Shown: positions 2,876-19,151 of the stretch, piece after piece | How positions within the stretch are numbered: position 1 is the stretch's first letter | Layout of the letters: each line of letters starts with the position of its first letter | Assembly: GCA_052390515.1 (NCBI GenBank) | Contig: JBQTGV010000044.1 | Span: 15,619-79,618, forward strand | Direction of reading: 5' to 3' | DNA length: 64,000 nt | Origin: Candidatus Eiseniibacteriota bacterium | GTDB lineage: Bacteria > ARS69 | Translations under genes and position numbers: made by a program | Notes under the pieces: generated by a model | The model's input: only the letters and a program-made list of their open reading frames with translations | What the model was told of the DNA's origin: nothing | Databases searched by the model: none

Positions 2876-5761
2876 ATGAGCGATGATCGCTGGATCCGCC
2901 TGCGCGCTCTCTTCGACGAGATCCAGGAGCTACCCGAGGCGGAGCGCACGTCGTTCCTCGACCGCGAGCTCACCGGGGAGCCCGAGCTCCGCGCGGAGCT
3001 CGCCGTGCTTCTGGCCGACGTGGGATCCACCGCCCGCTTCCTCGCCGAGCCGAGCGACGCGGCCGCCGGCTCGATGGTCGGACCCTATCGGCTTGTCGAG
3101 CGTCTCGGCGAGGGCGGCTTCGGCGTCGTGTACCTGGCCGAGCAAGAGCGGCCGCTCCGTCGCCGCGTGGCGCTCAAACTGATCAAGCCCGGGATGGACT
3201 CCAAGCAGGTGGTGGCCCGCTTCGACGCGGAGCGGCAGGCGCTCGCTCTGATGGATCATCCGGGAATCGCCCAGGTCTTCGACGCCGGCGAGACCGAGAC
3301 GGGGCACCCCTACTTCGCAATGGAGTACGTGCCCGGACTCCCCATCACGAAGTACTGCGACGAGCACCGCCTCGCCGTGCGAGAGCGGCTGGCGCTGCTG
3401 GTCGAAGTGTGCGACGCCGTACAGCACGCGCACCAGAAGGGAGTGATCCACCGCGACATCAAGCCCTCCAACGTGGTGGTCGCCCGCCGCGAAGGCGCCG
3501 CCGCGCCCAAGGTGATCGACTTCGGCATCGCCAAGGCCACGACCAGCCTCGGGTCCGGCGACACGGTGATGACCCACGCGGGCATGATCGTCGGCACGCT
3601 CGACTACATGAGTCCGGAACAGGCCGGCGCGACCGCCGCCGCGATGGACACGCGCTCGGACATCTATTCCCTCGGCGTCCTGCTCTACGAGCTGCTGATC
3701 GGAGAGCTGCCGTTCGACAGCGGGCGCCTTCGGGAGGGCGCGCTCTCCGATGTTCTGCGCGTGATCCGAGAGGAGGATCCACCGCCGCTCACCGTCCGTC
3801 TCGCGCGCAGCGGCGAGGTCGTCGCGCGGGTGGCCGAACGGAGATCCACGGATGCTCGCCGCTTGCTGCGCGATCTGAGAGGCGAGCTGGAGTGGATCAC
3901 ACACCGGGCGCTGGAGAAGGATCCGGAGCATCGCTACCCGTCCGCGGCCGAGCTGGCGGCGGACATCCGCCGGTACCTGGCCGACGAGCCGGTCCTCGCC
4001 GGAGCTCCGACGACGGCGTACAAGATCCGGAAGTTCGTGCGGCGTCACCGCGTGGTCGTTACCGCCGCGGCCGTCGTGCTGCTCAGCATCGTCGCGGGCG
4101 GGATCGCCGCCGCGGTCGGGTTCAGCCGCGCGGTGCGCTCCGAGCAGGTCGCGGTGCGCGCCGAGCAGGCCGCGCGGCGGGAGGCGGAGTCGTCGCAGCG
4201 GGTTGCGGACTTCCTCATCGAGCTGTTCGGCGCCCCGAGTCCGGACCGTTCCAAGGGCGAGACGCTCACCGCGCGCATGCTCCTGGACGAGGGCACGCGC
4301 CGCATCGAGAGCGGACTGAAGGCCGACCCTCAGGTCCGCTCGCGTCTGCTGGGTACGATGGGCGCGTCGTACCTCAATCTCGCGGCGTTCGACGAAGGTG
4401 TACGTCTCCATCGGGAGGCGCTCGCGGCCGCGGAGGCCGCGGAGCCGCCGGACGCCACGGGGATCGGGCGTTCTCTCTTGGGGCTGGCGGTCGGTTTCAA
4501 CATGTCTGGGCAGCAGGACAGTATCCCCGCCGTCATCGATCGGGCGATCTCGCTGCTGGGAGGCACCGAGGGAGCGGACCCGACGCTGCTGGCCCGGTGC
4601 ATCTATCAGAAGGGGCAGTGGTGGAACGCCAAGGGCGACGCTGCGGCCGCGGACTCGTTGGTCTCGGTGGCGCTCCGGATGGAAGAGTCGACTCCTTCGC
4701 CGGAGCCGGCGGTCCTTCTGCCCATGGTCTCCACGAAGGCGAACATCGCGCACCGCCGTTTCGATCTGGATGCCGCGGAGCGTGACTACCTGCGCGTCGT
4801 GCAGCTCGCCGAGGAGGCCGGCCGCCCCTCCTGGGCGGTCTCCGCTCACAGCCGCCTGGCGGCGGTCTACGCTTCGCTGCAGGAGTCCGAGAAGGCCCTG
4901 CACCACGCGCAGGCGGGCTTGGATCTCGCCCGTCGGATCTACGCGCCGGATCACCCCAACGTCGCCGATGCACTCAGCGGTCTGGCCGCGGCCCTGACCG
5001 GCCAGGGAAGCCTCGACGAGGCGATCGCCGCCAGGGAGGAGGCGCTCGGGATCTTGAGGAAGCGGGCACTGCCCGAGGCCGTCGCGTACGAGCTCAACAT
5101 CCTCGCGCGGCTCTGCAGCGCCCTGGGGCGGCACGAGCTGGCGGTCGCCCGCGCCGGCGAGGCGTCCGAGCTCCGTCGCGGCACTCACGGGACGGACCAC
5201 ACCCGCACCGCCGAGTCGCTGGCGACGCTGGGGGCGTGCTGCGTCGCCGCGGGACAACCGGAGCAGGCCGACGCGCCGTTCCGCGAGGCCATCGCGATCT
5301 TCGATCGCCTCGGGGACAAGAGCATCTTCCCGCCCGTGACCTGGGTCGAGTATGCGGACCTCTGCCGCGACCGCGGGCTGTTCGAGCGCGCGGAGAGCTT
5401 GTACACGCGCGCCGAGGCGGCCCTGGACTCGACGAACGCGGGCATGAGGCAGCACGTCGGAGTCTGTCTGGCCGGACACGGCGAGCTCAGGTCGCTGCAG
5501 GGCCGTCACGACGAGGCGGAGTCCATGATGCGCAGCGGATACCCGCTGATACGCGGCGAGACGTCCGACGACGATGCGATCCTCGGTGACGTGCATCTGT
5601 CGTGGGCCGTCGTGCGGATGCGCGCGGGCAATGCCGAGGGGGCGCTCGAAGAGCTGCGCCGCGCGGCCGCCTGCGGGGTGACCTCCGAGGACGTCGCGGG
5701 TCATCCGGAGCTCGCCGCACTCCGTTCGCGGGTCGACTACCCGCGGGACAGCTTCCCGTAG
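2876..5761 (+). CDS. Ser/Thr protein kinase with a conserved N-terminal extension, one TM helix and a C-terminal TPR sensor domain (module 1)
   Basis: Hanks kinase motifs are present: GEGGFGVVY, VALK, HRDIKPSN, DFG, GTLDYMSPEQ. A TM segment VVVTAAAVVLLSIVAGGIAAAVGF follows. The C-terminal half has TPR-like repeats. There are four paralogs in the window. Confidence 0.85.
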   Translation: MSDDRWIRLRALFDEIQELPEAERTSFLDRELTGEPELRAELAVLLADVGSTARFLAEPSDAAAGSMVGPYRLVERLGEGGFGVVYLAEQERPLRRRVALKLIKPGMDSKQVVARFDAERQALALMDHPGIAQVFDAGETETGHPYFAMEYVPGLPITKYCDEHRLAVRERLALLVEVCDAVQHAHQKGVIHRDIKPSNVVVARREGAAAPKVIDFGIAKATTSLGSGDTVMTHAGMIVGTLDYMSPEQAGATAAAMDTRSDIYSLGVLLYELLIGELPFDSGRLREGALSDVLRVIREEDPPPLTVRLARSGEVVARVAERRSTDARRLLRDLRGELEWITHRALEKDPEHRYPSAAELAADIRRYLADEPVLAGAPTTAYKIRKFVRRHRVVVTAAAVVLLSIVAGGIAAAVGFSRAVRSEQVAVRAEQAARREAESSQRVADFLIELFGAPSPDRSKGETLTARMLLDEGTRRIESGLKADPQVRSRLLGTMGASYLNLAAFDEGVRLHREALAAAEAAEPPDATGIGRSLLGLAVGFNMSGQQDSIPAVIDRAISLLGGTEGADPTLLARCIYQKGQWWNAKGDAAAADSLVSVALRMEESTPSPEPAVLLPMVSTKANIAHRRFDLDAAERDYLRVVQLAEEAGRPSWAVSAHSRLAAVYASLQESEKALHHAQAGLDLARRIYAPDHPNVADALSGLAAALTGQGSLDEAIAAREEALGILRKRALPEAVAYELNILARLCSALGRHELAVARAGEASELRRGTHGTDHTRTAESLATLGACCVAAGQPEQADAPFREAIAIFDRLGDKSIFPPVTWVEYADLCRDRGLFERAESLYTRAEAALDSTNAGMRQHVGVCLAGHGELRSLQGRHDEAESMMRSGYPLIRGETSDDDAILGDVHLSWAVVRMRAGNAEGALEELRRAAACGVTSEDVAGHPELAALRSRVDYPRDSFP

Positions 5762-6309
5762 AGCCAGGTCCGGGCGAAGGCCCAATCCCGCATCACCGTG
5801 CGCTTCGAGGACTGCAGAGTCTCGACCACCTCCTCCACGCTCAGCCCTCCATAGAATCGGAGGCGGACGACCTGCGCCGCCCGTTCGTCGCGCTCGGCGA
5901 GCTGCTCGATGGCCCGGTCCAGCGCCAGGATCGTCTCGGGGTCCCCGTCGTCGGCGAGCGCCGCCACCTGGGAGAGGTCCAGGGAGACCTTGTGCGGCGG
6001 TCTCCCTTCGGAATCGCCGCCGCGCTTCGCCCGGCCGCGGGCCCGGGCCCGCTCGATCAGGATCCGGCGCATGGCCACGGCCGCCGCGGCGAAGAACTCG
6101 CGGCGGCTTTGCCAGACGCTCCCGTCCCGGGGACCGAGGCGCAAGTAGGCCTCGTGGACCAGCTCGGTGGACTGAATGGTCTGGCCGCTGCGCTCGCCGC
6201 GCATCCGCGCGTGTGCCAGGGCGCGAAGCTCCTGGTAGACCTCGGCGAAGAAGGCGTCGGAGCCGGCCGGACCGGCGGCATCCGGCTCCTCGGGGGGCTG
6301 GCTGGCCAT
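5737..6309 (-). CDS. ECF sigma factor, kinase-associated type (ECF43/TIGR02999-like)
   Basis: Sigma-70 region 2 and 4 motifs are present (ELVHEAYLRL; LRFYGGLSVEEVAETL). The C-terminal tail is 'DWAFARTWLYGKLSRG'. It converges on the kinase gene with a 25-nt 3' overlap. There are five paralogs. Confidence 0.85.
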   Translation of the reverse strand: MASQPPEEPDAAGPAGSDAFFAEVYQELRALAHARMRGERSGQTIQSTELVHEAYLRLGPRDGSVWQSRREFFAAAAVAMRRILIERARARGRAKRGGDSEGRPPHKVSLDLSQVAALADDGDPETILALDRAIEQLAERDERAAQVVRLRFYGGLSVEEVVETLQSSKRTVMRDWAFARTWLYGKLSRG

Positions 6310-6458: not shown

Positions 6459-6542
6459 ATGATCACCCTCTTCGCGCTCGTCCTGGAACTCGTCGCTGGC
6501 AGGATCGCGGCCAACCACAATCAATCCGGGCTGGCCGGCTGA
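6459..6542 (+). CDS. Small conserved peptide (27 aa) MITLFALVLELVAGRIAANHNQSGLAG; peptide family member 1
   Basis: GGAGG lies 8 nt upstream of the ATG. It is one of six paralogs sharing the LFxLxL(D/E)hhAGRhAANHNQ core. It is divergent from the sigma gene. Confidence 0.6.
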   Translation: MITLFALVLELVAGRIAANHNQSGLAG

Positions 6543-6614: not shown

Positions 6615-9497
6615 TCACCGCGTCGCCACCGGCCCGAGGTAGCGGTCCAGCCAGTCGAGGGTCTCGCGCACCACGTCGGGCCACGGCGGCACGTGGCCGC
6701 TGTCCAGGACCACGTGGCGCTTGTTCGCCGCCGGCGTTCCCAGCATGCGGAACAGCGGCTGCTGGTTGGTCTCGAACGGCGAGGCGAAATCGTAGCGGCC
6801 GTTGATCATCAGGACCGGGACGCGCACGCGCGGGGCGTAGTTGAACCCGTGCACCTCTTCCGGCGCCGACTCGTCCAGCCCTGCGGCGACGAGCACCAGG
6901 GTGCGCAGCCGGGGCTCCACCGCACCGACGATCGTTCCCTCTTCCGCGCCCATGCTGAGGCCATAGAACGCGATTCGCGTGCGGTCGATGTCGCTCCGAC
7001 TCTCGAGGTAGTCGATTCCGCGTCGCACGTCCAACGCGCGCTGCGTGACCACCTCGCGGAGGAAGCTGGGTCCAACGGCGTCCCGCTTGCGCCGGTGGTA
7101 GGTCTGCTGATAGGCGGGGAACAGGACCGCCCGCCCGCTCCGGACCAGGAATCCGAAATCGCGCTGACCCACTTGGTCGATCGATAAGAGCCACCGGGCA
7201 CTCCCTGGAGGAAAGTAGACGACGGTCTGGTAGGGGGGCGCCGCGTTCTTGGGCAGGAGCAGCCACGCCGGGATGCGCTCGTCGCCATAAGCCGCGGTGA
7301 AGCTGACCTTCTCGGCGCGCCAGAGCGGGGACCGGTCGTCCACCGAGTCCACCTGCGCGCCCAGCTCACCGCGGTCGTAGTCGAACATCCGCCGGTAGAT
7401 CTCGAAGATCCGATCGTCCACCGGTTGCAGACTCGAGAAGTCTCGCACCGGATCCTGGATCTCGCCGAAGCACTCATCGGAAGGGGGCTGCTCGTAAACG
7501 GCGCAGCGCAGGCCCAGGATCGGACCCCGGTCCATGGGATCGAGCGCGTCCGGCCCCGTATACAAGTACGTCGGATCGCTCCAGGCTCCGCCCAGCGTGT
7601 AGCGCCGGTCCCCGTCGGCGTTCCAGGCCCACTCGCGCACGTTGCCGGCCATGTCGTAGTTCCCGAACGCGGTGAGGCTGGGTTGGGCCTCGACGGGGCG
7701 CGGACCCTGGTCGCCGAAATTGCTGAAGCGTAGCAGGTCGGAGAAGATCGACAGGTCGGCCGCGCGGTACCAGTGATGGACGGTCGGCAGGCTCTTGCCG
7801 GCGAACTCGGCGTAGGCCGCCGCTTCGTACCAGCTCACACCGGACACCGGATGGTCTGCGTGCTCCGCGGGAAAGCTGCCCAGCTCCCAGGTCGAAGGCC
7901 CGGGCCGGCCGGTCCGGTCGCGGAACCGCGACATCGCCTCCTCGAAGGACAGAGACTCTCCGTGACTGGCGAAGGGGTGCTTCCACAGCTCGCGGCGTCG
8001 ATACCCGCCGGCGTTCACGAACGCCGCGAACTCTCGGTTGGTGACCTCGTGGCGGTCGAGCCAGTAGTCGCCGAGCACGACCGGTGGTGCCCCCCGGAAC
8101 TGGAAGGAACCTCCGGGAACGCGCACCATGTCGGCGGGTGCCGCGGCGACCGGGGTCAGGCGTACCGGAGCCTGCAGGGCCAGTCTCGACGGAGAGAAGG
8201 CCAACTCCACCGGTGCAAAGCCCGACTTCGCGAGATGGAAGCGCAACAGTGCGAACGGCAACTGCACGCCCTCGAGGGGCGTCATCCCCAGCTCTCTCCA
8301 CGCCGCGTCGGGCTCCGAGTACGGCTTGAAGGAGACCTGCGCACCGGCGGGCTCGCTGAGTAGGGTCAAAGGCGCGATCGTGATGTCGAGCCACGCCCTC
8401 TCGAAGACCGGATCGCCAGCCAGCAGGGGCTGTGCCTTCTCGGCCAGCCGGAATGCGCCGAGGCGGTCGTCCGCCTCGATCAGACGCTGGATCTCGGGCA
8501 GTGCCTCGCGCCTGGCCCAGCGTTCCTGCGCGCCCCGGTGCCACGTCCACACACCGAGCGCGGCGAGCGAGATCACCAGCAGCGCAAGGAGGGTGAGCCC
8601 CGCTGGACTGCGCAGACGTCTCGCCCACGCGGGCAGCCGGTCGGGCGTGGCGCAAGCCTCGAGGTCCGCGAGAAGCGCCACCGCCGAGGCGTAGCGCTCC
8701 GCCGGATCCTTCGCGAGACAGCGGGTCACGATCGCCTCGAGGCGTGGATCTATCTCGGGCCTCGCGCGCCGCAATGGTGTCGGCGCGGCGTTCAGGATCG
8801 CAGCCAGCAGAGCGACACCAGTGTCCCCCTCGAACGGCCGTCGGCCCGCGATCATCTCGTGGAGCGTCACTCCGAACGAAAAGACATCCGAGCGCGCGTC
8901 GACCGTGCGGCCGGTGGCTTGCTCGGGAGACATGTAGGCGGGGGTCCCGACGATCGTGTGCTCTGCGGTCGTGAGCGGGACGCTGATCGTGCTGGTCGTC
9001 GACTCCGTCCCGGGCTCGACGGACGGCGGGCGGCGGGCGAGTCCGAAGTCGAGCACCTTCACCACACCGCTGCGCGTGATCATCACGTTGGCGGGCTTGA
9101 GGTCGCGATGCACCACGCCGGCCGCGTGGGCCGCCGCCAGGCCGCGGGCCACGTCCACCGCGATCCGCAGCGCCTCGGCGAGGGGCAGCGGTCCGCGCGC
9201 GACGCGCTCGCGCAGACTCTCCCCGTCGAGACATTCCATCGCGATCCAGGTGCCGCGGCTGTCGTCTTCGCCAACGTCGTAGACCGTGACGATGTTGGGA
9301 TGGTTGAGCGACGAAAGGGTTCGCGCCTCCTGCACAAGACGCTGCGTACGCTGGGACTCGGCCACCGCGTCGGGGCGCAGCAGCTTGATGGCCACCGTCC
9401 GGCCCAGGCGCGGGTCGCGGGCACGGTAGAGCACGCCCATGCCGCCCTCACCGAGCTTGTCGGTGATCTCGAAACGACCGACGGTCTCTCCGAGCAT
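6615..9497 (-). CDS. Multidomain Ser/Thr kinase - TM - FGE-sulfatase (SUMF1-like) domain - alpha/beta-hydrolase (S9/DLH-like) domain
   Basis: N-terminal kinase motifs are present (GEGGMGVLY, HRDLKPAN, DFG, GTPAYMSPEQ), followed by a TM helix LLALLVISLAALGVW. The middle region is FGE-like (HEVTNREFAAFV...GGAWSDP). The C-terminal region is an alpha/beta hydrolase (GLSMGAEEG nucleophile elbow; ...DSGHVPP). Confidence 0.8.
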   Translation of the reverse strand: MLGETVGRFEITDKLGEGGMGVLYRARDPRLGRTVAIKLLRPDAVAESQRTQRLVQEARTLSSLNHPNIVTVYDVGEDDSRGTWIAMECLDGESLRERVARGPLPLAEALRIAVDVARGLAAAHAAGVVHRDLKPANVMITRSGVVKVLDFGLARRPPSVEPGTESTTSTISVPLTTAEHTIVGTPAYMSPEQATGRTVDARSDVFSFGVTLHEMIAGRRPFEGDTGVALLAAILNAAPTPLRRARPEIDPRLEAIVTRCLAKDPAERYASAVALLADLEACATPDRLPAWARRLRSPAGLTLLALLVISLAALGVWTWHRGAQERWARREALPEIQRLIEADDRLGAFRLAEKAQPLLAGDPVFERAWLDITIAPLTLLSEPAGAQVSFKPYSEPDAAWRELGMTPLEGVQLPFALLRFHLAKSGFAPVELAFSPSRLALQAPVRLTPVAAAPADMVRVPGGSFQFRGAPPVVLGDYWLDRHEVTNREFAAFVNAGGYRRRELWKHPFASHGESLSFEEAMSRFRDRTGRPGPSTWELGSFPAEHADHPVSGVSWYEAAAYAEFAGKSLPTVHHWYRAADLSIFSDLLRFSNFGDQGPRPVEAQPSLTAFGNYDMAGNVREWAWNADGDRRYTLGGAWSDPTYLYTGPDALDPMDRGPILGLRCAVYEQPPSDECFGEIQDPVRDFSSLQPVDDRIFEIYRRMFDYDRGELGAQVDSVDDRSPLWRAEKVSFTAAYGDERIPAWLLLPKNAAPPYQTVVYFPPGSARWLLSIDQVGQRDFGFLVRSGRAVLFPAYQQTYHRRKRDAVGPSFLREVVTQRALDVRRGIDYLESRSDIDRTRIAFYGLSMGAEEGTIVGAVEPRLRTLVLVAAGLDESAPEEVHGFNYAPRVRVPVLMINGRYDFASPFETNQQPLFRMLGTPAANKRHVVLDSGHVPPWPDVVRETLDWLDRYLGPVATR

Positions 9498-9686
9498 CGG
9501 CTGCCTCTCGGTGGTTGAGCCGTCACGCTACGGTGCTCATTCAATCCAGGTCAAGGCTGGGGCGACTCAGTCGCGCGCTCTCGCGAGCGGCGGTGGTGCT
9601 CGCGGCCTAAGCGTGGCGGCGGCCCGGTCGGGCTGGTGTACAATCCGCGCGGTCGCCGCCCCGGCGCCCGTGCCTCGGAGCCGCCC

Positions 9687-12551
9687 ATGGCCGACGAACA
9701 CTGGGATCGCGTCCGCGCGCTCTTCGAGCAGGTCCTGGAGCTGCGGGAGTCCGAGCGCACCGCGTTCCTGGACCGCGAGCTCGCCGGCGAGCCGGCGGTA
9801 CGCGCTGACCTCGTGTCTCTCCTCTCCGCGGGTCAGGCGAGCACCGAGTTCCTGGCCGGCGACTCCACCGGGGACCACGGATCGATCGGGCCGTATCGCC
9901 TCGTCAAGGTGATCGGCGAGGGCGGCTTCGGCGTGGTGTACCTCGCAGAGCAAGAGCGCCCGCTCCGCCGCCGCGTGGCGCTCAAGCTGATCAAGCGCGG
10001 GATGGACACGAAGCAGGTGATCGCGCGCTTCGAGGCGGAGCGGCAGGCGTTGGCGATGATGGACCACCCCGGAATCGCGCAAGTCTTCGACGCCGGCGAG
10101 ACCGAGATGGGGCGGCCCTACTTCGTCATGGAGTACGTGCCGGGCGTTCCCATCACGAGGTTCTGCGACGAGCAACGCCTCACCCTCCGAGACCGTCTGT
10201 CGCTGCTCGCGAACGTGTGCGACGCGGTGCAGCACGCGCACCAGAAGGGTGTGATCCACCGCGACATCAAACCGACGAACGTGGTGGTCGCGCGGCGCGA
10301 CGGAGTGGTCACACCCAAGGTGATCGACTTCGGCATCGCCAAGGCGACCACGGGCTTCCGCGGCGGGACCCTGATGACTCAGGAAGGGGCGATCGTCGGC
10401 ACGCTCGGGTACATGAGTCCGGAGCAGGCCGGCGCTCTGGACGCGCCGGTGGACACCCGTTCGGACATTTACTCGCTGGGGGTGATGCTCTACGAGCTGC
10501 TGATCGGGGCGCTGCCCTTCGACGACGGTCGCCTTCGTCAAGGCGCGCTGTCGGATGCGCTTCGCGTGATCCGGGAGGAGGATCCGCCGGCGCTGACCGT
10601 GCGGCTCGCACGCAGCGGCGGGGACGTGGCGAAGGTCGCGGAGCGGCGCTCCACGGACGCGCGCCGCCTGCTGCGGGACCTGAAGGGCGAGCTGCAGTGG
10701 ATCACGTTGCGCGCGCTGGAGAAGGATCCGGAGCGGCGCTATTCCTCGGCGGCGGAGTTCGCGGCGGACATTCGCCGGCATCTGACCGACGAGCCGGTGC
10801 TCGCCGGGGCGCCGACCGCCACCTACCGCATCCGGAAGTTCGTGCGTCGCCACCGCGGCGGGGTGGCCGCGGCGACACTGGTGCTCGCCGCGATCCTCGC
10901 CGGCGGCATCGCCTCGACCGTCAGCCTCACGCGCGCCGTCCGCGCCGAGCGCGAAACCCGACTCGAAGCGGAGTCTGCTCGACAGGTCGCAGACTTCCTG
11001 GTCGGCCTTTTCAGCGCGTCCACTCCAGACCGCGCGCGGGGCGCGGTCATCACCGCCCAGACGCTGCTCGAAGAGGGGACGCGGCGCATTCGAGACACGG
11101 TGACGGAGGATCCGCGGGTGCGTGCGCGGCTCTTGACGACGTTGGGGCACGCGAACGTGAACCTCGCTCAGTACGACCAGGGCATCGCTCTCCTGCGCGA
11201 GGCGCTGGCGGTGACCGACTCGAGCGCGTCGTCGGAACCGGTGGAGGTCGTCACTCAGCTCTACGCGCTGGCCACCGGCTTGCTGACATCCGGCCGGGGT
11301 GCCGACGACGAAACCGGCGCGACTCTGGACCGCGCGCTGGCGATCTTGCGTGATTCCGGCGCGGACCGGCCCGACCTGCTGTCGGCCTGTCTGCGCGGAA
11401 AGGGGTCGTGGTTCAACGAACGCGGCGAACTGGCGCCTGCCGAGTCGCTGCTCACGCTGGCCATCCGCACGGCGGAGTCGGTCTCCCCTCCGGATACCGC
11501 GAAGCTCGTCCGCATGTACAGCACGCGGGCGAACATCGCGCACCGGCAGTTCCACCTCGAGGACGCGGAGCGCCATTACTTGCACGCGCTCGAACTGGCG
11601 GAGAAGAGCGGGCAGCCGAGCTGGTCGATCAGCATGCACCGGCGGCTGGCCTCGGTCTACGGCGCGCTCGGCGATCCGGAGAAGGCGATTCGACACGCCG
11701 AAGAGGGAGTGCGGCTCGCACGGCAGATCTATTCGCCCGACCATCCCAACCTGGCTGACGCGCTGAGCGGCCTCGCGTCGGCACTCGCCTCGAAGGGTGA
11801 TGACTCGCAAGCGATCACCGTGAGCGAGGAGGTCGTCCGCATCACGCGCCAGAGCGGGAGATCGTTCGACCTCGCGCTGGAGCTGAACAGCCTGGGGCTT
11901 CTGTACCGCAGCAGCGACCAGCCGGAGCGGGCCGTGGCCTGCGCCGAGGAATCCTGGCGAATTCGCAACGAGACCCTCGGCGCGGGAAACGCGCGGACGG
12001 CGGAGTCGCTGGCCAACCTGGCGCGGAGCCTGTTCGCGGCGGGACAGACCGCGCGCGCGGACTCTTCGTTCCAGGCGGCCATCGCGGTGTTCGATCGGCT
12101 GGACGCGACGGGAGTGTTCACCGCGGTGGCCTACGCGAGCTTCGCGAACCTTTGTCGCGACACGAAGCGCCTCGCCCGCGCCGATACACTCTACGCTCAC
12201 GCCCAGGCCCTATTGGACTCCACGAATGCCGGGCTCCGACCCTACGCGGGCGAGTGCCTCATGGACCACGGGTACCTCCGCTCGCTGCAGGGTCGCCACG
12301 CGGAGGCGGAGGCCATGATCGCCGCCGGCTTCCCGTTGCGGCGAGGGGAGACGGCGGAGACGGATCCGGGGCTCGGACAGTGGTACCTGATCTGGGCCGC
12401 CTCGCGCGCAGCCGCCGGCGACGTGGACGGGGCCCTCGGAAAACTCCGGGAAGCGGCCCGCTGCGGTGTCACCTCGGAGGATGCGGAGACGCTCTCGGAG
12501 CTGGCCGCGCTCCGCTCCCGCGCCGACTATCCGCTGGAAGACTCCCGCTGA
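9687..12551 (+). CDS. Ser/Thr protein kinase with TM and TPR domain (module 2 paralog)
   Basis: It has the same architecture and the same N-terminal 'W.RV.ALF...ER.AFLDRE...LRA.L..LL' extension as the other paralogs. HRDIKPTN, DFG and GTLGYMSPEQ are present. Confidence 0.85.
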   Translation: MADEHWDRVRALFEQVLELRESERTAFLDRELAGEPAVRADLVSLLSAGQASTEFLAGDSTGDHGSIGPYRLVKVIGEGGFGVVYLAEQERPLRRRVALKLIKRGMDTKQVIARFEAERQALAMMDHPGIAQVFDAGETEMGRPYFVMEYVPGVPITRFCDEQRLTLRDRLSLLANVCDAVQHAHQKGVIHRDIKPTNVVVARRDGVVTPKVIDFGIAKATTGFRGGTLMTQEGAIVGTLGYMSPEQAGALDAPVDTRSDIYSLGVMLYELLIGALPFDDGRLRQGALSDALRVIREEDPPALTVRLARSGGDVAKVAERRSTDARRLLRDLKGELQWITLRALEKDPERRYSSAAEFAADIRRHLTDEPVLAGAPTATYRIRKFVRRHRGGVAAATLVLAAILAGGIASTVSLTRAVRAERETRLEAESARQVADFLVGLFSASTPDRARGAVITAQTLLEEGTRRIRDTVTEDPRVRARLLTTLGHANVNLAQYDQGIALLREALAVTDSSASSEPVEVVTQLYALATGLLTSGRGADDETGATLDRALAILRDSGADRPDLLSACLRGKGSWFNERGELAPAESLLTLAIRTAESVSPPDTAKLVRMYSTRANIAHRQFHLEDAERHYLHALELAEKSGQPSWSISMHRRLASVYGALGDPEKAIRHAEEGVRLARQIYSPDHPNLADALSGLASALASKGDDSQAITVSEEVVRITRQSGRSFDLALELNSLGLLYRSSDQPERAVACAEESWRIRNETLGAGNARTAESLANLARSLFAAGQTARADSSFQAAIAVFDRLDATGVFTAVAYASFANLCRDTKRLARADTLYAHAQALLDSTNAGLRPYAGECLMDHGYLRSLQGRHAEAEAMIAAGFPLRRGETAETDPGLGQWYLIWAASRAAAGDVDGALGKLREAARCGVTSEDAETLSELAALRSRADYPLEDSR

Positions 12552-13018
12552 CTCCTGGCCAGCCACCACTCGCGGAATTCGCGGAGCCGCGGCAGCGATT
12601 CTCGATCCTTGACTCGCCCCGTGGCCTCCTTGCTCCGGATGATGTCGTCGATGTGGCAGACCGGCAGCCCCTCCACCACCACCGACCGGGCGAGCGCGTC
12701 TGCGAAGGACTCGATTCCGTCCGGGGCGAACACCAAGTCCAGATCGAACGGTCCCTGGCGAAGCTGGACGAAGTCTTTGCCGCGCTCGATTTCGGCCCGC
12801 TCGCGCTCGTTCAGCTCGAAGCCCAGCGCACCGAGCGCGCGGACCGCTGCCGCTCCATTCGGCGGCGTCTTGTCGAGATAGAGGTCGGCGTCCTGGGTCG
12901 TGTCCGGGAATCCGAGTATGACGGCACCCGCCTTGCCGATGAACAGGTAGCGAACACCGAAGCGCCCGAACGCGGAAGCGATCTCCTGCGCCTGCCGGTA
13001 CTCAAACCGCGCGGCCAT
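12527..13018 (-). CDS. Hypothetical nucleotidyltransferase-like protein whose C-terminal ~20 aa resemble the ECF-sigma C-terminal tail (possible sigma gene remnant fusion)
   Basis: The C-terminal 'EFREWWLARSQRESSSG' can be compared with the sigma 'LRDWAFARAWLYGELSGG'. It occupies the same 25-nt convergent overlap with the kinase 3' end that the sigma genes occupy. Confidence 0.4.
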   Translation of the reverse strand: MAARFEYRQAQEIASAFGRFGVRYLFIGKAGAVILGFPDTTQDADLYLDKTPPNGAAAVRALGALGFELNERERAEIERGKDFVQLRQGPFDLDLVFAPDGIESFADALARSVVVEGLPVCHIDDIIRSKEATGRVKDRESLPRLREFREWWLARSQRESSSG

Positions 13019-13220
13019 ATCCGAGCCAGACCGGCAAGTTCTCCTCGCACCATCGGCGGTAATCGGCCATGGTGTCGAACGAGCGGTACCTCGCGTCGTC
13101 GAGAACGGGCTTGTAGGTGCGGATGAACGCGTACTTCAGCCGCAGATCCAGCGGGCGCCGCGCAGCCGCCTCGAAGTCCTGAGTCCACTCGCGCCTCACG
13201 GACGCCGGTATCTCATCCAT
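13002..13220 (-). CDS. Small hypothetical protein (72 aa), co-oriented and overlapping with the downstream NTase-like ORF
   Basis: An ORF with an internal ATG at 13220 overlaps the next gene by ~17 nt, so the two are likely a two-gene operon. No recognisable motifs were found. Confidence 0.3.
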   Translation of the reverse strand: MDEIPASVRREWTQDFEAAARRPLDLRLKYAFIRTYKPVLDDARYRSFDTMADYRRWCEENLPVWLGYGRAV

Positions 13221-13473
13221 GCGTTCAACATAGCATCCCGTTGCGGGGTGAGCCACGACCGCCGAGCTTCGGGCTGTGGCGTTGTGAGCCACCTCCGCGA
13301 CATCGAGCGACAGCTTGGGCTGCGCGACGGCCCGGAGCCCGTCGTAGACCTGGGCGATGAAGGCGTCGGAACTCCCCGGAGGGGTGCCGGAGGCGTGAAC
13401 AGGGGGCTCGCCGCGGGAATCGAGCCCGGATGGGAACGGGCCGCTGCCGTGGCTCGACGGGAGCTTCCGGCAA

Positions 13474-13501
13474 GGGGACGCATGTCACGTGGCGGCCCAC
13501 T
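13474..13501 (+). promoter_or_regulatory. Seventh copy of the TGTCAC-N17-CGCAC motif, immediately followed by a 13-nt remnant (CACAACCAGAACC) of a peptide-gene 3' end
   Basis: The spacing is exactly 17 nt. 'cacaaccagaacc' is identical to the NHNQN-coding segment of peptide gene 2. No intact peptide ORF follows. Confidence 0.4.
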
Positions 13502-13589
13502 CCGGCGCACAACCAGAACCGGGTCGGGGCAGCAGGTCATGGTGATCTCCTCAGACCCTCGAAGGGAGAAACGGACGATGGTCACCCTG

Positions 13590-14002
13590 CTGACGCTACC
13601 TGGAACACGTTCCCCACGGCAAACGGCGACGCGGCGGACGTGGTGCTGGGCTCCGGCAGCTTCGACACCGCCGGTTCGCCCACGCCTTCGGCGACCAGCA
13701 TCGCCTACCCGATGGGCGTCGCCTCCGACGGCACCAGCCTGTTCGTCTCGGACGCCGTCCTGAACCGCGTGCTGATCTTCGCGCCGTTCCCGACCACGAA
13801 CGGAGCAGCGGCCGCCATCGTGCTCGGGCAGAGCAGCTTCGCCAACTCCGCGGGCAACGATCCGAACCAGGACGGCGTCCGCGACGCCGGCCCGACTGCG
13901 CGGACCTTTCTCAGCCCCACCGACGTCAAGATCATCGACGATCGCCTCTTCGTGGCGGACATGGACAACAATCGCGTGCTGGTGTTCGCCCCGAGCCTCT
14001 GA
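13590..14002 (+). pseudogene. Truncated C-terminal fragment (~135 aa) of an NHL-repeat lipoprotein paralog
   Basis: It aligns with the C-terminal third of the 25262..26473 and 33995..35209 proteins (TWNTFPTANGDAADVVLG...NRVLIFAPFPTTNGAAA...NRVLVF). It has no N-terminal signal or lipobox and no in-frame plausible start. The upstream part of the ORF is non-homologous. Confidence 0.5.
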
Positions 14003-14101
14003 TCGAGGGGACCGACGGCGGCGCGGCGGCCATCTGACGAGTGGTTCCGCGCTCGCCGGCCACGCTCCCCCCGGACCATCCGCTGATGGACTCGCTGTGA
14101 G

Positions 14102-14830
14102 TCAGGCGAGCACGACGCGATGGGCTTCCCGCACGAAGAAGCGCGTGCACTCCTCCCAGCGGAAGGGCACCAACGTGGCGACCTGCGGCTCCTGTTCGGC
14201 GTCCTCGAAGTACGTCAGGCTCTTGAGGACGTGGTACGTGTTGACCCGTCCCTCGCCGTACTTGCGGGGAAGCAGGGCGAAGTAGTCCGCGAGCGGCGCG
14301 CCGCCCTGGAGGATGAACCAGAGGTCCACGAAGTCCTTGCGGCTTCCCCGGCCGGAGACCGCCACGAGCTTCATCAGGGCGATGTCGGTCAGGTCCGCGA
14401 CGCGGAACCGGCGGTACTCCCCCGGCACGCGCAGCAGCGGCTCCGGCACCACGAAGAACGACAGCTTGACGCCGAGGACGAGCGCGGTCAGGTCTCTCTC
14501 GCTCTTGCGAAGCAGCTCGAACGGGCCGAGCGCGGCGAGCCGCCGCTCGAGCTCGGCAACGTCGGCTGCATCAGTTCGGAAGAAGTCGAAGTCCTCGGAC
14601 CGGCGATGGCCGATCTGCAGCGCGAGTCCGGTTCCGCCGGCGAGCACCCAGTCTTCCAGCAGCGCGGGGTCCGCCGCGTCTACGACATCCAGCAGCCGTC
14701 GGCTTCCGTCCGGGAGAACCTTGGTGTGCACTTCCGTCCCTCCAGGCGCGCCATCGCTTCCCAGAACGCACGGGTTCTCGGCGACTCGAATCGAAGGCCG
14801 GAGACGACGTCGAGGAACCTGTCGCGCCCG
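14102..14830 (-). CDS. AbiEii/AbiGii-family nucleotidyltransferase toxin (type IV TA-like); 5' boundary uncertain
   Basis: The motifs 'LAGGTGLALQIGHRRSEDFDFF' and 'RKDFVDLWFIL' are characteristic of the AbiEii (DUF1814) NTase fold. It overlaps the upstream HTH gene in another frame. Confidence 0.55.
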   Translation of the reverse strand, partial: RARQVPRRRLRPSIRVAENPCVLGSDGAPGGTEVHTKVLPDGSRRLLDVVDAADPALLEDWVLAGGTGLALQIGHRRSEDFDFFRTDAADVAELERRLAALGPFELLRKSERDLTALVLGVKLSFFVVPEPLLRVPGEYRRFRVADLTDIALMKLVAVSGRGSRKDFVDLWFILQGGAPLADYFALLPRKYGEGRVNTYHVLKSLTYFEDAEQEPQVATLVPFRWEECTRFFVREAHRVVLA

Positions 14831-15207
14831 TAGTACCGCACCAGGGCCTGCACGTCGTCCAGCGATCCCAGGTCCAGCACCCGCCGGACGACCCATGCGG
14901 GGTAGCGCTCCGCGTCGGACGGCCGGAGGTTCCGATCCCAGAAGAGACGGCGAAGCCGGCGGGGAACCCGCCGGCGGATGCGCTGCCCGCGTGGAGTGCG
15001 GCCCGGCTCGAGGAAGCGAACATCCAGAAGGCACCCGAGCGCGGCCGCGAGCTTGCCCAGAGTGGCCACCTCGAATCGCCGCCAGCCGCTCTCGTACCGG
15101 TGGACCGTCGGTGGCGACGTTCCGGCGCGTCGAGCGAGATCCGCCAGGGACCAGCCTCGCTCCAGGCGAAGGCGCCGAATCTCGGGACCGATCTCGTCAG
15201 GACGCAT
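14680..15207 (-). CDS. HTH (XRE-family) DNA-binding protein, putative antitoxin/regulator partner of the AbiEii-like gene
   Basis: The HTH is 'IRRLRLERGWSLADLARRAGTSPPTVHRYESG'. It lies immediately upstream of, and co-oriented with, the NTase toxin-like gene. Confidence 0.5.
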   Translation of the reverse strand: MRPDEIGPEIRRLRLERGWSLADLARRAGTSPPTVHRYESGWRRFEVATLGKLAAALGCLLDVRFLEPGRTPRGQRIRRRVPRRLRRLFWDRNLRPSDAERYPAWVVRRVLDLGSLDDVQALVRYYGRDRFLDVVSGLRFESPRTRAFWEAMARLEGRKCTPRFSRTEADGCWMS

Positions 15208-15265
15208 GTTGCTATCATATGCGATAAACCACCCACGTCCAGGGCCCCCTGGGGTCGAGGGCGCC

Positions 15266-15835
15266 CTATCCGCCGGAAAGCTCACGGTAGAGCCAGGCCC
15301 GGGCGAAAGCCCAGTCCCGCAGCACGGTGCGGGGCGTGATTTCCAGCATCTCGGCCACCTCTTCGACGCTGAGCCCGGCGTAGAAGCGCAGCTTCACGAC
15401 CTTCGCCACCCGCTCCTCCCGGCCGGCCAGCCGATCGACCGCCTGGTCCAGAGCCAGGATGGTCTCGGGGTCGCGGTCGTCCGCCAGTGCGGCCACCTCG
15501 GCGATGTCCAGGGACAGCTTGGGCGCCGGCCGCCCTTCGGAATCCCCGCCGCGCTTCACCCGGCCGCGGGCCCGCGCCCGCTCGATGAGGATCCGGCGCA
15601 TGGCCTCGGCCGCCGCGGCGAAAAACTGGCTCCTGCTCAGCCAGGCGCTGTCGTCCCCAGGGCGAAGCCGGAGGTACGCCTCGTGCACCAGCTCCGTGGA
15701 CTGGAGGGACCGGCTGCTTTCTCCGCGCATCCGCGCGTGGGCGATCGCCCGGAGCTCGTCGTAGACCTGGGCGAAGAAGGCGTCGGACCCGCTTGGGGAG
15801 GGGACGGCAGGGCCGGCGGGGGGCTCGGTCGGCAT
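15266..15835 (-). CDS. ECF sigma factor, kinase-associated type (paralog 2)
   Basis: It has the same motifs as the other sigma paralogs (ELVHEAYLRL, DWAFARAWLYRELSGG). It is divergent from peptide gene 2 and kinase 3. Confidence 0.85.
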   Translation of the reverse strand: MPTEPPAGPAVPSPSGSDAFFAQVYDELRAIAHARMRGESSRSLQSTELVHEAYLRLRPGDDSAWLSRSQFFAAAAEAMRRILIERARARGRVKRGGDSEGRPAPKLSLDIAEVAALADDRDPETILALDQAVDRLAGREERVAKVVKLRFYAGLSVEEVAEMLEITPRTVLRDWAFARAWLYRELSGG

Positions 15836-15891
15836 CGGGGGCCATGGTACGCGGGCGGGACTCCCGGCTCAACGGGGCAACCGGCCCGGGG

Positions 15892-15919
15892 TGTCATGTG
15901 CCGGCCCGTTCCGGCGCAT
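15892..15919 (+). promoter_or_regulatory. TGTCAT-N17-CGCAT candidate ECF-type promoter (copy 2)
   Basis: The conserved bipartite motif lies 31 nt upstream of the peptide 2 ATG. Confidence 0.55.
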
Positions 15920-15950
15920 GGAGGGCTGTCACCCAGGAGGGGTTCCCCAG

Positions 15951-16034
15951 ATGCTCACGCTCTTCGTTCTCGTGCTCGAACTCGTCGCAGGCAGGCTCGT
16001 TGGAAACCACAACCAGAACCTGATCCGGGCGTAG
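15951..16034 (+). CDS. Small conserved peptide (27 aa) MLTLFVLVLELVAGRLVGNHNQNLIRA; family member 2
   Basis: GGAGG lies 10 nt upstream. It is a paralog of the other five peptides. Confidence 0.6.
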   Translation: MLTLFVLVLELVAGRLVGNHNQNLIRA

Positions 16035-16286
16035 GACTGCGCTCGACGTGAGGCACTCGATGGACCCGGCGCCGACGCGGCCACCGGCTGGCGCGAGTGC
16101 CGTCGAACTTCCCTGCCCGGCGCGCTCGGAGAAGATCACGCTGCTCATGTAGGTTGAGTCGGCCGGAAGAGTGTAGTGCGCACCGGGTGTGCCGTCGCGT
16201 TCGGCGACGTCCGTCACGGACTCCCGGGCGGAGCGGTGGACGTGGTGCTGCTCCCGGCGTCGTTCGCGGTCGGCTACACTACGCCC

Positions 16287-19151
16287 ATGGACCCGGAGAG
16301 GTGGAGCCGGTTGCAGGAGCTCTTTGCCGATCTCCTGGATACTCCCGCGCCCGAGCGCCCCGCCTTCCTCGACCGTGAGGTCGGGGCCGACACAGAACTG
16401 CGTGCCGAGCTCGAGCGGCTCCTCGCCCTGACCGGGTCCGCGGGCGGCTTCCTCGCTGCGCCGGTTACGGATTCCCCAGGAGCCGTGGGTCCCTACCGGC
16501 TCCTCGAGGTCCTGGGCGAAGGCGGCTTCGGTGTCGTGTACCTCGCCGAGCAGGAGCGGCCGATCCGCCGCCGTGTCGCGCTCAAGCTGATCAAGCCGGG
16601 CATGGACACGAAGCGGGTGATCGCTCGCTTCGAGGCGGAACGGCAGGCCCTTGCGCTCATGGACCATCCGGGCATCGCCCAGGTTTTCGAAGCCGGCGCG
16701 ACGGAAGCCGGCCGCCCCTACTTCGCGATGGAGTACGTGCCCGGCGTGCCCATCACCACGTATTGCGAGCGCGAGCATCTGCGCATCCGCGACCGACTCG
16801 AGCTGTTCCTCGACGTCTGCGACGCCATCCAGCACGCGCACCAGAAGGGAGTGATCCATCGGGACATCAAGCCGTCGAACGTGCTCGTGGCGCTGCGCAA
16901 CGGCGCGGCCGCGCCGAAGGTGATCGACTTCGGAATCGTCAAGGCCACGACCGAGGCCTTGGCCGGTGGAACCGTGATGACGAGCGAGGGCATGATCGTC
17001 GGGACCCTGGCCTACATGAGCCCCGAACAGGCCGGCGCGGCCGACGCGGTGGATACTCGCTCGGACATCTATTCCCTCGGAGTGGTCCTCTACGAGCTGC
17101 TGGCGGGATCGCCGCCGTTCGACGCCGAGCTCCTGCGTAGCTCGGCGCTCTCGGATGCGGTGCGCGTGATCCGGGAGGAGGAACCGCCCGCCCTCGCCGT
17201 CCGCGTGACCCGCGGCGGCGAAGAGGGAGTGGCGAAGATCGCGCAGGGTCGATCGGTGGAGCCGCGGCGCCTGCTCCGCGAGCTCAGAGGCGAGCTGCAC
17301 TGGATCACGCTCCGAGCGCTGGAGAAGGACCCGGATCGTCGCTATGCGTCCGCGGCGGAGCTCTCGGCGGACATTCGCCGATACCTGGCCAACGAGCCCG
17401 TGCTCGCCGGCCCCCCGAGAACGCTGGTTCGGCTTCGCAAGTACGCGCGAAGGCACCGCGTGGGAGTGACCGCTGCCCTGGTCGTGCTGCTCGCCATCAT
17501 CGCCGGCGGGATCGCGGCGGGAGTCGGATTCCGGCGTTCGCTCCTGTCCGAGCGCAGGGCGCAGCGGGAGGCCACCTCGGCACGCCAGGTCGCGGCATTC
17601 CTGGTCGAGCTGTTCCAGTCGTCCACGCCGGACCGCGCGCGGGGAGAGACGGTCACCGCCCGGAAGCTCTTGGACGAGGGCGCGCGACGCATCCAGGTCA
17701 GCGCCATGGACGATCCGGAGGTGCGGGCGAGCCTGCTGTCGACCCTCGGGAACGCCCACGTAGAGCTCGGGCTTTACGATGAGGGTGTCGCACTCCTGCG
17801 CGAGGCGCTGGTCACGACCCAAGCTGCGGAGCCGCGCGACGAACGGCGCGTCGCCGAGCAAATGGCAGCGCTCGCCGAAGGGTTGGAGCCGATCGGCAAG
17901 GCGGACAGCGCGGGGATCCTGCTGGATGCGGCGATCGCCATCCTGGAAGAGCCTGAGCATGCAGACGCGGATCTCCTGGCCAGGAGCCTGCTGCGGAAGG
18001 GGGATCTCTTCTACGGCCGAGGCGAGTTCGTGGCGGCGGACTCGCTCATCTCGGTAGCGATTGACATGGCAGAAGCACGAGAAGATCCGGACGAAGCACA
18101 CCTCACCGACATGTACGTGATGAAGGCCAGCATCGCGCACCGTCGGTACGACCTGCAGGAGGCGGAAGGCCACTACCTCCGGGCACTTCGCCTCGCGGAG
18201 GATTCGGGCCGCCCCACTGCGTCGGTGAGCATTCATGGAGGCCTGGCGTACGTATACGCCCAGCTCGGGGATACGGAGAATGCGGTGAGGCACGCCGAGG
18301 AAGGCGTCCGCCTGGCGCGCCGCATCTACTCCCCGGATCACCCCGACCTCGCCGGGGCTCTTTCCGGGCAGGCGGCGGCGCTGCAGGCCCGTGGCGATGT
18401 CGAGCAGGCGATCGCCGCGCGCGAAGAAGCGATCGCCATCTTGCGGGCGGGCTCGCCCGAGCAGGAGCGCCTGGCGCACGAGCTCAACACCGCCGGACTC
18501 GTGTATCGATTCACCGGGCAGCTCGATCTGGCCGTCGCCCGCTTCGAGGAAGCCTGCAGCCTGAAGCGCCGGATCTACGGCGACGAGAATCTCCGCACGG
18601 CGGAGAGCGTGGCGAATCTCGCGCGCTGCTACGCGGACGCTGGGCTGAACGTGCGCGCCGACTCGACGTACCGTGCGGCGATTACGGTGCTCGACCGGTT
18701 CGACCCGACGAGCCTGTTCACGGTGTACGCGTACATGGGGTACGCGAACCTCTGCCGGGACGCCGGACGCGCGGACCAAGCCGACACGCTGTACGCGCAC
18801 GCGCTGGCTGACATGGACTCCACCAACGCAGGAATCCGACCGTACTTCGCCGAGTGCCTGCTCGATCGCGCGATGCTCCGTTCCGCTCAGCGCCGGCACG
18901 CGGAAGCGGAGTCCTTGCTGCAGTCCGGCTGTCGGATGCTGCGCGGCGACGCGCCGGAGGACGACGCGAAGCTCGGCGAGGTGTACACCCGCTGGGCCCT
19001 GACGCGGGTCCGGGCCGGGGACGCGGAGGGAGCCGTGGACAGGCTCCAGCTGGCCCTGCGGTGCGGCGTCGCTGCGGACGAGCTGGAGCAGTACCCGGAG
19101 TTCGCCGCGCTCCGCTCCCGGCCGGACTATCCCTTGGACAGCTCGCCGTAG
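16287..19151 (+). CDS. Ser/Thr protein kinase with TM and TPR domain (paralog 3)
   Basis: It has the conserved N-terminal extension plus HRDIKPSN, DFG and GTLAYMSPEQ, followed by a TM helix and TPR repeats. Confidence 0.85.
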   Translation: MDPERWSRLQELFADLLDTPAPERPAFLDREVGADTELRAELERLLALTGSAGGFLAAPVTDSPGAVGPYRLLEVLGEGGFGVVYLAEQERPIRRRVALKLIKPGMDTKRVIARFEAERQALALMDHPGIAQVFEAGATEAGRPYFAMEYVPGVPITTYCEREHLRIRDRLELFLDVCDAIQHAHQKGVIHRDIKPSNVLVALRNGAAAPKVIDFGIVKATTEALAGGTVMTSEGMIVGTLAYMSPEQAGAADAVDTRSDIYSLGVVLYELLAGSPPFDAELLRSSALSDAVRVIREEEPPALAVRVTRGGEEGVAKIAQGRSVEPRRLLRELRGELHWITLRALEKDPDRRYASAAELSADIRRYLANEPVLAGPPRTLVRLRKYARRHRVGVTAALVVLLAIIAGGIAAGVGFRRSLLSERRAQREATSARQVAAFLVELFQSSTPDRARGETVTARKLLDEGARRIQVSAMDDPEVRASLLSTLGNAHVELGLYDEGVALLREALVTTQAAEPRDERRVAEQMAALAEGLEPIGKADSAGILLDAAIAILEEPEHADADLLARSLLRKGDLFYGRGEFVAADSLISVAIDMAEAREDPDEAHLTDMYVMKASIAHRRYDLQEAEGHYLRALRLAEDSGRPTASVSIHGGLAYVYAQLGDTENAVRHAEEGVRLARRIYSPDHPDLAGALSGQAAALQARGDVEQAIAAREEAIAILRAGSPEQERLAHELNTAGLVYRFTGQLDLAVARFEEACSLKRRIYGDENLRTAESVANLARCYADAGLNVRADSTYRAAITVLDRFDPTSLFTVYAYMGYANLCRDAGRADQADTLYAHALADMDSTNAGIRPYFAECLLDRAMLRSAQRRHAEAESLLQSGCRMLRGDAPEDDAKLGEVYTRWALTRVRAGDAEGAVDRLQLALRCGVAADELEQYPEFAALRSRPDYPLDSSP

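Follow-up and report, generated by a model that had tools for sequence, protein, structure and literature searches.

A partly decayed ECF sigma/Ser-Thr kinase module between two probable toxin-antitoxin cassettes in Candidatus Eiseniibacteriota

Kinase-activated extracytoplasmic function (ECF) sigma factors of group ECF43 carry a QTTA consensus in region 2.2 (QATE in EcfK) in place of DxxD (PMC13147305). We analyzed a locus resembling these systems in 64,000 nt of DNA from Candidatus Eiseniibacteriota (contig JBQTGV010000044.1, positions 15,619 to 79,618; hereafter the window). It consists of a Ser/Thr kinase gene, K2, the remnants of a sigma factor gene, sigma-x, and an inserted gene pair, ORF72/ORF163. 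The sigma genes of the window adjoin Hanks-type kinase genes, as in EcfP/PknT of Vibrio parahaemolyticus and EcfK/PknS of Xanthomonas citri, and encode Q(S/T)TE in sigma-2.2 instead of the acidic DxxD. This likeness was drawn from gene adjacency and the region 2.2 motif. Unlike the ECF43 systems, the window has kinases that are TPR proteins of ∼955 aa. Its kinase and sigma genes converge and share 25 nt at their 3′ ends, the pairs have multiplied to five paralogous copies within 35 kb, and they would drive a small-peptide gene and NHL lipoproteins. The member beside K2, sigma-x, is a pseudogene.

The inserted pair was compared with MenAT1 (Rv0078B-Rv0078A, MenT/DUF1814) of Mycobacterium tuberculosis. 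In that system a 68-aa antitoxin, MenA1, is encoded by the gene upstream of MenT1, and residues T39, D41, K137 and D152 of MenT1 were mutated (PMC10435456). ORF163 is likewise modelled as a minimal pol-beta-type nucleotidyltransferase (NTase) fold, and a small protein without a DNA-binding domain (ORF72, 72 aa) is encoded immediately upstream. In contrast to MenAT1, ORF163 is shorter than the ∼190-aa MenT1 chain, has no Pfam AbiEii/DUF1814 or PADLOC match and is not placed in DUF1814 by hidden Markov model (HMM). In sequence, ORF72 resembles neither MenA1 nor any PDB chain, and the ORF72/ORF163 family is far more conserved and is widespread in environmental phyla. A second pair at the far side of the locus resembles AbiE (AbiEi/AbiEii, type IV toxin-antitoxin/abortive infection) in having an AbiEii NTase with an overlapping upstream partner gene, and differs from it in having an HTH_3 + DUF6922 protein as this partner instead of a COG5340 AbiEi.

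We consider it probable that this locus is the decayed half of an ECF-sigma/Ser-Thr-kinase module bracketed by two toxin-antitoxin cassettes, formed by insertion and then parallel decay. The decay itself is ordinary pseudogenisation in a dynamic paralogue array.

K2 and the remains of sigma-x and its target genes

K2 is intact, and its likely start codon is the ATG at 9687, where the 954-aa protein P0391 of NCBI also begins. The protein is ∼60% identical to its four paralogues in the window and 75% identical to orthologues on two metagenome contigs, L001 and L167 (dN/dS 0.19–0.24). The orthologous comparison is made up of the window and these two contigs. Both contigs have the cassette at the same position and the same HTH-DUF6922/AbiEii pair beyond it.

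A first-pass annotation, made from the letters alone, had reported that the sigma gene expected beside K2 is missing. No intact sigma ORF is present there; however, the gene has left two remnants upstream of ORF72, which that annotation missed together with the second pair at 14102–15207. The remnants were found when 13200–14110 was compared with the window by blastn. The middle block (13288–13333) corresponds to sigma nt ∼225–269 from the stop (codons ∼105–118, PKLSLDVAEVA). The 5′ block (13321–13424) corresponds to the first ∼100 nt of the gene (codons ∼4–33, ...SDAFIAQVYDGLRAVA) and is 88% identical to L167rc 7676–7727 by blastn. Sigma homology runs on from this block through the intergenic region to the promoter at 13483–13510. 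The start-codon position, read by eye, appears to be ATT, not ATG. The window copy lacks the spacer and nt 1 to ∼224, and it lacks nt ∼270–472. With the death of its partner sigma gene, K2 has become an orphan, though one that is maintained.

The target genes of the module are also reduced. The recurring promoter motif, TG[GT]CA[CT]-N12-TCCGGCGCA, is divergent from the sigma genes, and each of its other copies precedes a peptide gene. Besides the copy next to K2, a regular expression located copies at 6368, 15892, 33627 and 33844 of the window; L001 and L167 contribute another five to six. The peptide gene lies 32–64 nt past the motif and encodes 26–34 aa of the form M.TLFALVLELVAGR..NHNQ...; in some copies an NHL lipoprotein gene follows. 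Candidate roles for the peptide are leader peptide, small membrane peptide and signal. Beside K2, the promoter runs directly into CACAACCAGAACC, a 13-mer found only at 13508 and inside the peptide gene at 16008. This direct junction had been noticed correctly in the first pass, where the motif was given as TGTCAC-N17-CGCAC; that exact string occurs once in the window and is not the form that recurs. A deletion of ∼110 nt at a CAC microhomology runs from the −10 element into the peptide gene as far as ...AACCAC, directly before AACCAGAACC. Both L001 and L167 keep an undamaged orthologue of the peptide gene.

Of the NHL gene, only the C-terminal third is left, as had been proposed. The maximal ORF (13430–14002) begins upstream of the promoter and matches residues ∼272–400 and 309–446 of the 403-aa and 450-aa NHL paralogues, respectively (66–68% identity, E 1e-53 to 1e-56). 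The fragment scores 19.1 with the NHL Pfam model, below the cut-off of 20, and has no L-x-x-C lipobox, which is present in both paralogues. The remnant abuts the 3′ end of AbiEii and measures ∼400 nt in the window and ∼75 nt in L167; none is left in L001. The intact order of promoter, peptide gene and NHL gene is seen elsewhere in L001 and at 33844–35209.

The lesions of sigma-x differ among the three loci. In L167, sigma-x is full length with a complete tail of its own and lies directly upstream of ORF72; its lesions are a single frameshift (∼codon 42) and a single TAG (∼codon 148). In L001, sigma nt 1–224 are joined to nt 505–573, which is a 280-nt internal deletion. No lesion is common to the window, L001 and L167. 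The common ancestor would therefore have had the cassette between K2 and a still full-length sigma-x, and the three lineages would have lost sigma-x independently. The first pass had proposed to look for a syntenic intact module; the orthologous loci recovered include a full-length but damaged sigma-x in L167, and none of them lacks the cassette.

K2, ORF163, ORF72, the HTH gene and AbiEii have no internal stops, with pairwise dS of 0.2–0.87. Among the window, L001 and L167, dN/dS is 0.13–0.20 for ORF163, 0.13–0.16 for ORF72, ∼0.2 for HTH-DUF6922 and 0.2–0.26 for AbiEii. K2 and both cassettes are under purifying selection (dN/dS 0.13–0.26). The three lineages that carry the insertion are separated by dS of ∼0.4–0.7, and both cassettes are old, maintained residents. 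The earlier description of a degenerate module with an inserted two-gene cassette and internal deletions holds; through these deletions the peptide gene has lost the greater part of its length and the NHL gene two thirds. Its picture of a snapshot of turnover is misleading, since the insertion is common to three lineages and the decay is specific to each.

Three orthologous loci thus document the turnover of a paralogous sigma/kinase array. A cassette was inserted long ago, and afterwards the sigma gene and its targets turned into pseudogenes in parallel, each lineage in its own way. The kinase and the two probable toxin-antitoxin pairs, by contrast, have been preserved.

Table 1. Coordinates of features in the window.
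Feature	Position	Strand	Evidence
K1 kinase gene	2777–5761		
ECF sigma gene S1	5737–6309	-	PF07638
K2, intact Hanks-type Ser/Thr kinase with TPR repeats	9636–12551	+	Pkinase and TPR_12 Pfam matches
Convergent K2/ORF163 overlap, 25 nt	12527–12551		
ORF163, MenT1-like minimal nucleotidyltransferase, probable toxin	12527–13018	-	Homologues, AlphaFold, Foldseek, profile match
ORF72, conserved small protein, probable cognate antitoxin	13002–13220	-	17-nt overlap with ORF163 start
Cassette upstream region	13221–13261	-	Common to L001 and L167
Sigma-x remnant, middle block	13288–13333	-	blastn to S15266, S4 and L167 sigma-x, 80–85%; tblastn
Sigma-x remnant, 5′ block	13321–13424	-	blastn to 15738–15918, 29798–29887 and 33432–33486; tblastn
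Module promoter motif, intact copy (TGTCAC-N12-TCCGGCGCAC)	13483–13510	+	
Peptide gene 3′ remnant (HNQN...)	13508–13530	+	Matches 16008–16030, 87%
NHL-repeat lipoprotein gene 3′ third, pseudogene	13600–14002	+	Paralogue alignment
AbiEii-family nucleotidyltransferase, toxin of second pair	14102–14731	-	PF08843 E 9.5e-15; PADLOC AbiEii
HTH_3 + DUF6922 protein, probable antitoxin or regulator	14680–15207	-	Pfam HTH_3 4e-13, DUF6922 6e-12
S15266, intact ECF sigma without convergent kinase	15266–15835	-	PF07638 at 2.8e-46; QSTE motif
K3 kinase gene	16176–19151		
ECF sigma gene S3	19127–20086	-	PF07638
K4 kinase gene	26489–29347		
ECF sigma gene S4	29323–29895	-	PF07638
K5 kinase gene	30080–32944		
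ECF sigma gene S5	32956–33654	-	PF07638

The ORF72/ORF163 pair

ORF163 belongs to a family of more than 7,800 homologues, typically 155–163 aa (often ∼158), from many phyla and contexts. A hypothetical protein of a Candidatus Eiseniibacteriota metagenome-assembled genome is 100% identical to it, and homologues in Vicinamibacteria, Planctomycetota, Elusimicrobia, Coatesbacteria and others are 70–85% identical. ORF72 has 4,155 homologues, whose alignment has 31 invariant columns. In all seven contexts examined, a gene for 69–77 aa lies upstream of the NTase gene and overlaps it by 17 nt. The two genes also occur as an isolated two-gene unit in unrelated neighbourhoods without a kinase or sigma gene. 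The pair was seen at 12527–13220 of the window and in L001, L003, L004, L006 and L167, always overlapping, and is nearly absent from sequenced plasmids and phages.

The family alignment of ORF163 shows a pol-beta NTase signature (G28...D43-x-D45, D94, K130...R135..D138). The AlphaFold model (pLDDT 95.7) was compared with the PDB by Foldseek and matched TM1012 (E 4.5e-5), MenT1 (8an5_B, E 1.1e-4, TMq 0.66), LnuA and ANT(2″)-Ia. At the sequence level, the family profile matched one solved NTase, MenT1 (8an4_A), at E 0.0014 over residues 9–150 (HMMER). T41, D43, K130 and D138 of ORF163 align opposite T39, D41, K137 and D152 of MenT1, and D45 is also aligned. The columns of these four ORF163 residues are invariant or nearly so in the family. 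The model of ORF72 is poor (pLDDT 57), and a sequence search of the PDB with ORF72 found no match.

Profile searches with ORF163 returned no Pfam match even at E ≤ 10 (including AbiEii/DUF1814, PF08843), no NCBIfam or PADLOC match and no meaningful PHROG match. Phage and plasmid searches with the cassette proteins gave no phage match and one weak plasmid match. The first pass had suggested an HMM check of the 163-aa and 72-aa proteins as a toxin-antitoxin or NTase pair; the MenT1 profile match answers to this suggestion, but no Pfam, NCBIfam or PADLOC model does. The ORF72/ORF163 family is very large, unusually conserved and uncharacterised, and has no model in these three collections.

On balance, we lean towards predicting that ORF72/ORF163 is a MenAT1-like toxin-antitoxin pair, with ORF72 the probable antitoxin. 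A less likely reading is that the two form a conserved accessory enzyme system, such as an NTase acting on antibiotics or small molecules, like LnuA or ANT(2″), with ORF72 as the small partner, and that their position next to K2 is incidental. The fold also resembles LnuA, ANT(2″)-Ia and TM1012, identities of 70–85% across phyla for both proteins are atypical of toxin-antitoxin pairs, and the empty PADLOC, Pfam DUF1814 and phage searches, with the one weak plasmid match, fit such an enzyme. However, among solved NTases MenT1 alone is matched at the sequence level, across almost the entire length and with the T/D/K/D residues aligned and conserved; the MenAT1 architecture, in which a small upstream gene overlaps the NTase gene, is present; and the pair occurs as an isolated two-gene unit in unrelated neighbourhoods.

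A −10-like TATGTT lies ∼8 nt upstream of the ORF72 ATG. Judging from this position, the cassette may have its own promoter and give a leaderless or near-leaderless transcript.

Proposed insertion at the K2/sigma-x junction

From the three orthologous loci, the ancestral order would have been K2 facing a convergent sigma-x, followed by the promoter, the peptide gene and the NHL lipoprotein gene reading away from sigma-x. Before the three lineages split, the ORF72/ORF163 cassette would have landed exactly at the convergent K2/sigma-x junction. The junction coincides with the K2 stop: the last few codons and the stop of the cassette would have been lost, and ORF163 now reads 25 nt into the K2 antisense strand to a TAG imposed by the Asp-Tyr codons of K2. 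This reading into K2 explains both the overlap geometry shared with the sigma genes and the resemblance of the ...E.S.G tail. The HTH-DUF6922/AbiEii pair lies at the far end, convergent with the NHL gene. Sigma-x would still have been full length after the insertion, and it and its target genes would later have been lost independently. The window shows two deletions and an apparently lost start codon in sigma-x, the deletion that joins the −10 element to the remnant of the peptide gene at a microhomology, and the loss of the 5′ two thirds of NHL. L001 has lost 280 nt within sigma-x and the entire NHL gene, and L167 has one frameshift and one nonsense codon in sigma-x and ∼75 nt of NHL. K2 and both cassettes remain under purifying selection. 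K2 may now work with another sigma factor, for example the kinase-less S15266.

In L001 and L167, the tails of K2 and sigma-x are both complete, so the 25–26 nt that overlap in other pairs are present twice. In L001, 13 nt (ACTATCCCCTGGA) flank the cassette on both sides (13/13); over the full 26 nt the two copies match at 18/26, which is the level of paralogues. A target-site duplication is not supported, because the copies are no more alike than paralogues. By analogy with K5/S5, where the overlap can be seen to resolve into two copies, the cassette may have entered a junction that was already separated.

Several points weigh against this history. A K2 scan of genome and metagenome contigs for an orthologue without the cassette gave, among the matches listed, only distant kinases at 56% identity or less, and with no cassette-free orthologue in hand we infer insertion rather than replacement. 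Only three loci are compared, two of which are single metagenome contigs. The frameshift and stop in L167 could be assembly errors, and sigma-x would then be intact there. The left breakpoint of the L001 deletion (L167rc 7423) and the right breakpoint of the window deletion (7428) are within 5 nt of each other, which could mean a hotspot or a more complex shared history. In L001 and L167 the cassette is flanked by two copies of the kinase-tail 25–26 nt, which are no more alike than paralogues (18/26), so target duplication cannot be shown. The toxin-antitoxin role of the pair is itself a prediction: ORF163 has no Pfam DUF1814 or PADLOC match, ORF72 has no detectable similarity to MenA1, and identities of 70–85% across phyla are unusually high for such a pair.

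In another reading, which is unlikely, the locus once had two adjoining modules, K2/sigma-2 and Kx/sigma-x; a single event exchanged sigma-2 and Kx for the cassette, and K2 and sigma-x were never partners. The kinase-tail-like 25 nt beside the sigma-x stop in L001 and L167 resemble the K2 tail only at paralogue level, K2 ends in TGA whereas the overlapping paralogues end in TAG, and the array plainly gains and loses whole modules, all of which would suit such a replacement. However, the event would need one breakpoint precisely on the K2 stop and another only a few nt from the sigma-x stop. The 25 nt beside sigma-x are its own coding tail and do not require a lost kinase, L167 has this single module at the locus, and K5/S5 shows that an overlap can resolve into two copies with neither gene lost. 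We therefore keep to insertion between K2 and its own partner.

A bolder extension of the insertion history seems to us rather unlikely: that entry of the cassette into the 25-nt overlap uncoupled the pair and set off repeated losses of the sigma gene and its regulon, each independent, in three lineages, that K2 lived on as an orphan and was rewired to S15266, and that ORF72/ORF163 is a very large, unmodelled MenAT1-like family.

The end of ORF163 bears on a different claim. ORF163 ends in ...EFREWWLARSQRESSSG, and the first-pass annotation had taken this end for a sigma tail fused to a foreign ORF, naming as contrary evidence a gene that natively has this C-terminus. This is what the homologues show. 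Residues 1 to ∼155 are native to the family, and the last ∼8 codons (SQRESSSG) are read-through into the K2 antisense strand. The motif LPRL(R/K)xFR(D/E)WW.xR is native to the ORF163 family and is found in members from many phyla whose genes adjoin neither a kinase nor a sigma gene. Among close homologues, F148 and R149 never vary and W151 hardly does; at 33–50% identity L145 is invariant and L142 and F148 are nearly so. Compared with L006, the closest kinase-free locus, cassette homology stops at ...AAGGG, abutting the K2 stop codon. There is therefore no leftover DNA that could be derived from a sigma gene. The 45 nt for residues 141–155 gave local scores of 16–26 against cassette homologues elsewhere and of 6–10 against the five sigma 3′ ends, which equals the shuffled controls (7.3 ± 1.3). 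Outside the kinase overlap, the tail resemblance was not above chance in protein shuffles (p ∼0.05–0.08).

The 25-nt overlap geometry, which the first pass had also pointed out, is real: ORF163 overlaps K2 up to the K2 stop at 12551, as in K1/S1, K3/S3 and K4/S4. The ORF163 stop TAG (12527–12529) is the antisense of the K2 Asp-Tyr codons (GACTAT), and the sigma genes at K1, K3 and K4 stop at the same position. ESSSG resembles ELSGG, with the stop at an identical position, because both ORFs read antisense through paralogous kinase 3′ ends, where GACTAT imposes the TAG. What looks like domain capture of a sigma tail follows from this antisense reading. Because ORF163 homologues in unrelated contexts carry the C-terminal motif natively, sigma ancestry of 12552–12590 is refuted. 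It is thus very improbable that a foreign NTase was fused in frame to the last ∼17 codons of a resident sigma gene, keeping tail and overlap: REWWLAR resembles RDWAFAR, ESSSG and its stop resemble ELSGG and its stop in sequence and in position relative to the kinase, and MAFFT aligns 12552–12590 with sigma 3′ ends if a 6-nt gap is opened, but FR(D/E)WW.xR is conserved without kinase or sigma neighbours, the nucleotide score equals that of shuffled controls and native family sequence reaches the K2 stop with no DNA to spare.

Two metagenome records touch on this overlap. P0004 (JGI sample 3300043331) is an 82%-identical ORF163 homologue of 163 aa that ends in ...RGRSGPSLG before its stop. Back-translated, this tail is the antisense of a kinase tail like DYP(R/S)(D/E), yet no kinase gene was called beside P0004. 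In JGI 3300043331 there is also a K2 orthologue; the gene that converges on it has at least 164 aa, overlaps it by 25 nt and is cut by the contig end.

The surrounding array and the second cassette

The window has a G+C content of 70%. Its first 35 kb hold five kinase paralogues (Pkinase + TPR, ∼955 aa each, ∼60% identical) and five ECF sigma paralogues (PF07638), which are all on the minus strand and 70–81% identical. Four pairs among these genes are convergent. In K1/S1, K3/S3 and K4/S4 the genes overlap by 25 nt at their 3′ ends, and the sigma stop TAG is the antisense of the conserved Asp-Tyr codons of the kinase (GACTAY). The kinases that overlap in this way end in TAG, and K2 ends in TGA. 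In region 2.2, all five intact sigma proteins have QSTE or QTTE at residues 44–49, and the L167 sigma-x pseudogene also has LQSTELV.

K5/S5 (32930–32990) is convergent without overlap, with an 11-nt gap. About 37 nt extra form a second, degenerate copy of the kinase tail/sigma tail, as if the overlap had been duplicated and then resolved. In L007 (5884–9455), the closest relative in the genome collection (kinase 56% identical), the kinase gene and a convergent 196-aa sigma-like ORF are 2 nt apart, so the 25-nt overlap is specific to the clade of the window.

Module sets differ among the three loci, with five in the window, one in L167 and a different set in L001; whole-module gain and loss at this locus is real. 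In L167, the single K2/sigma-x module lies between a homologue of window 2314–2815 and feoB (window 35295–37505). Compared with L167, the window has ∼6.8 kb extra on one side (K1, a sigma gene, a peptide gene and an unrelated kinase) and ∼20 kb extra on the other (four sigma genes, three kinase genes, two 830-aa proteins and NHL genes).

The AbiEii gene of the second cassette is convergent with the NHL remnant, and the HTH_3 + DUF6922 gene lies upstream of it and overlaps it. The HTH gene begins 58 nt past the stop of S15266. This orphan sigma gene is 2.7 kb from the orphan kinase K2 and is wholly lacking in L167. A kinase 3′ remnant beside S15266, beyond the overlap, was considered and rejected, since ∼11/20 nt matched, which is not significant. 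An Rfam search of 12000–16300 gave nothing above threshold.

Some gene limits need correction. The sigma ORF at 19127–20086 is longer than the likely gene, whose start is probably near 19699 (191 aa, like the paralogues). The NHL ORF at 33857–35209 is also overlong; its start is probably near 33995, downstream of the second peptide gene. Four peptide genes, of 27–30 aa and with the pattern M.TLFALVLELVAGR..NH(N/G)Q..., are intact (6459–6542, 15951–16034, 33714–33797 and 33903–33995), and two of the copies stand in tandem ahead of the NHL gene at ∼33995.

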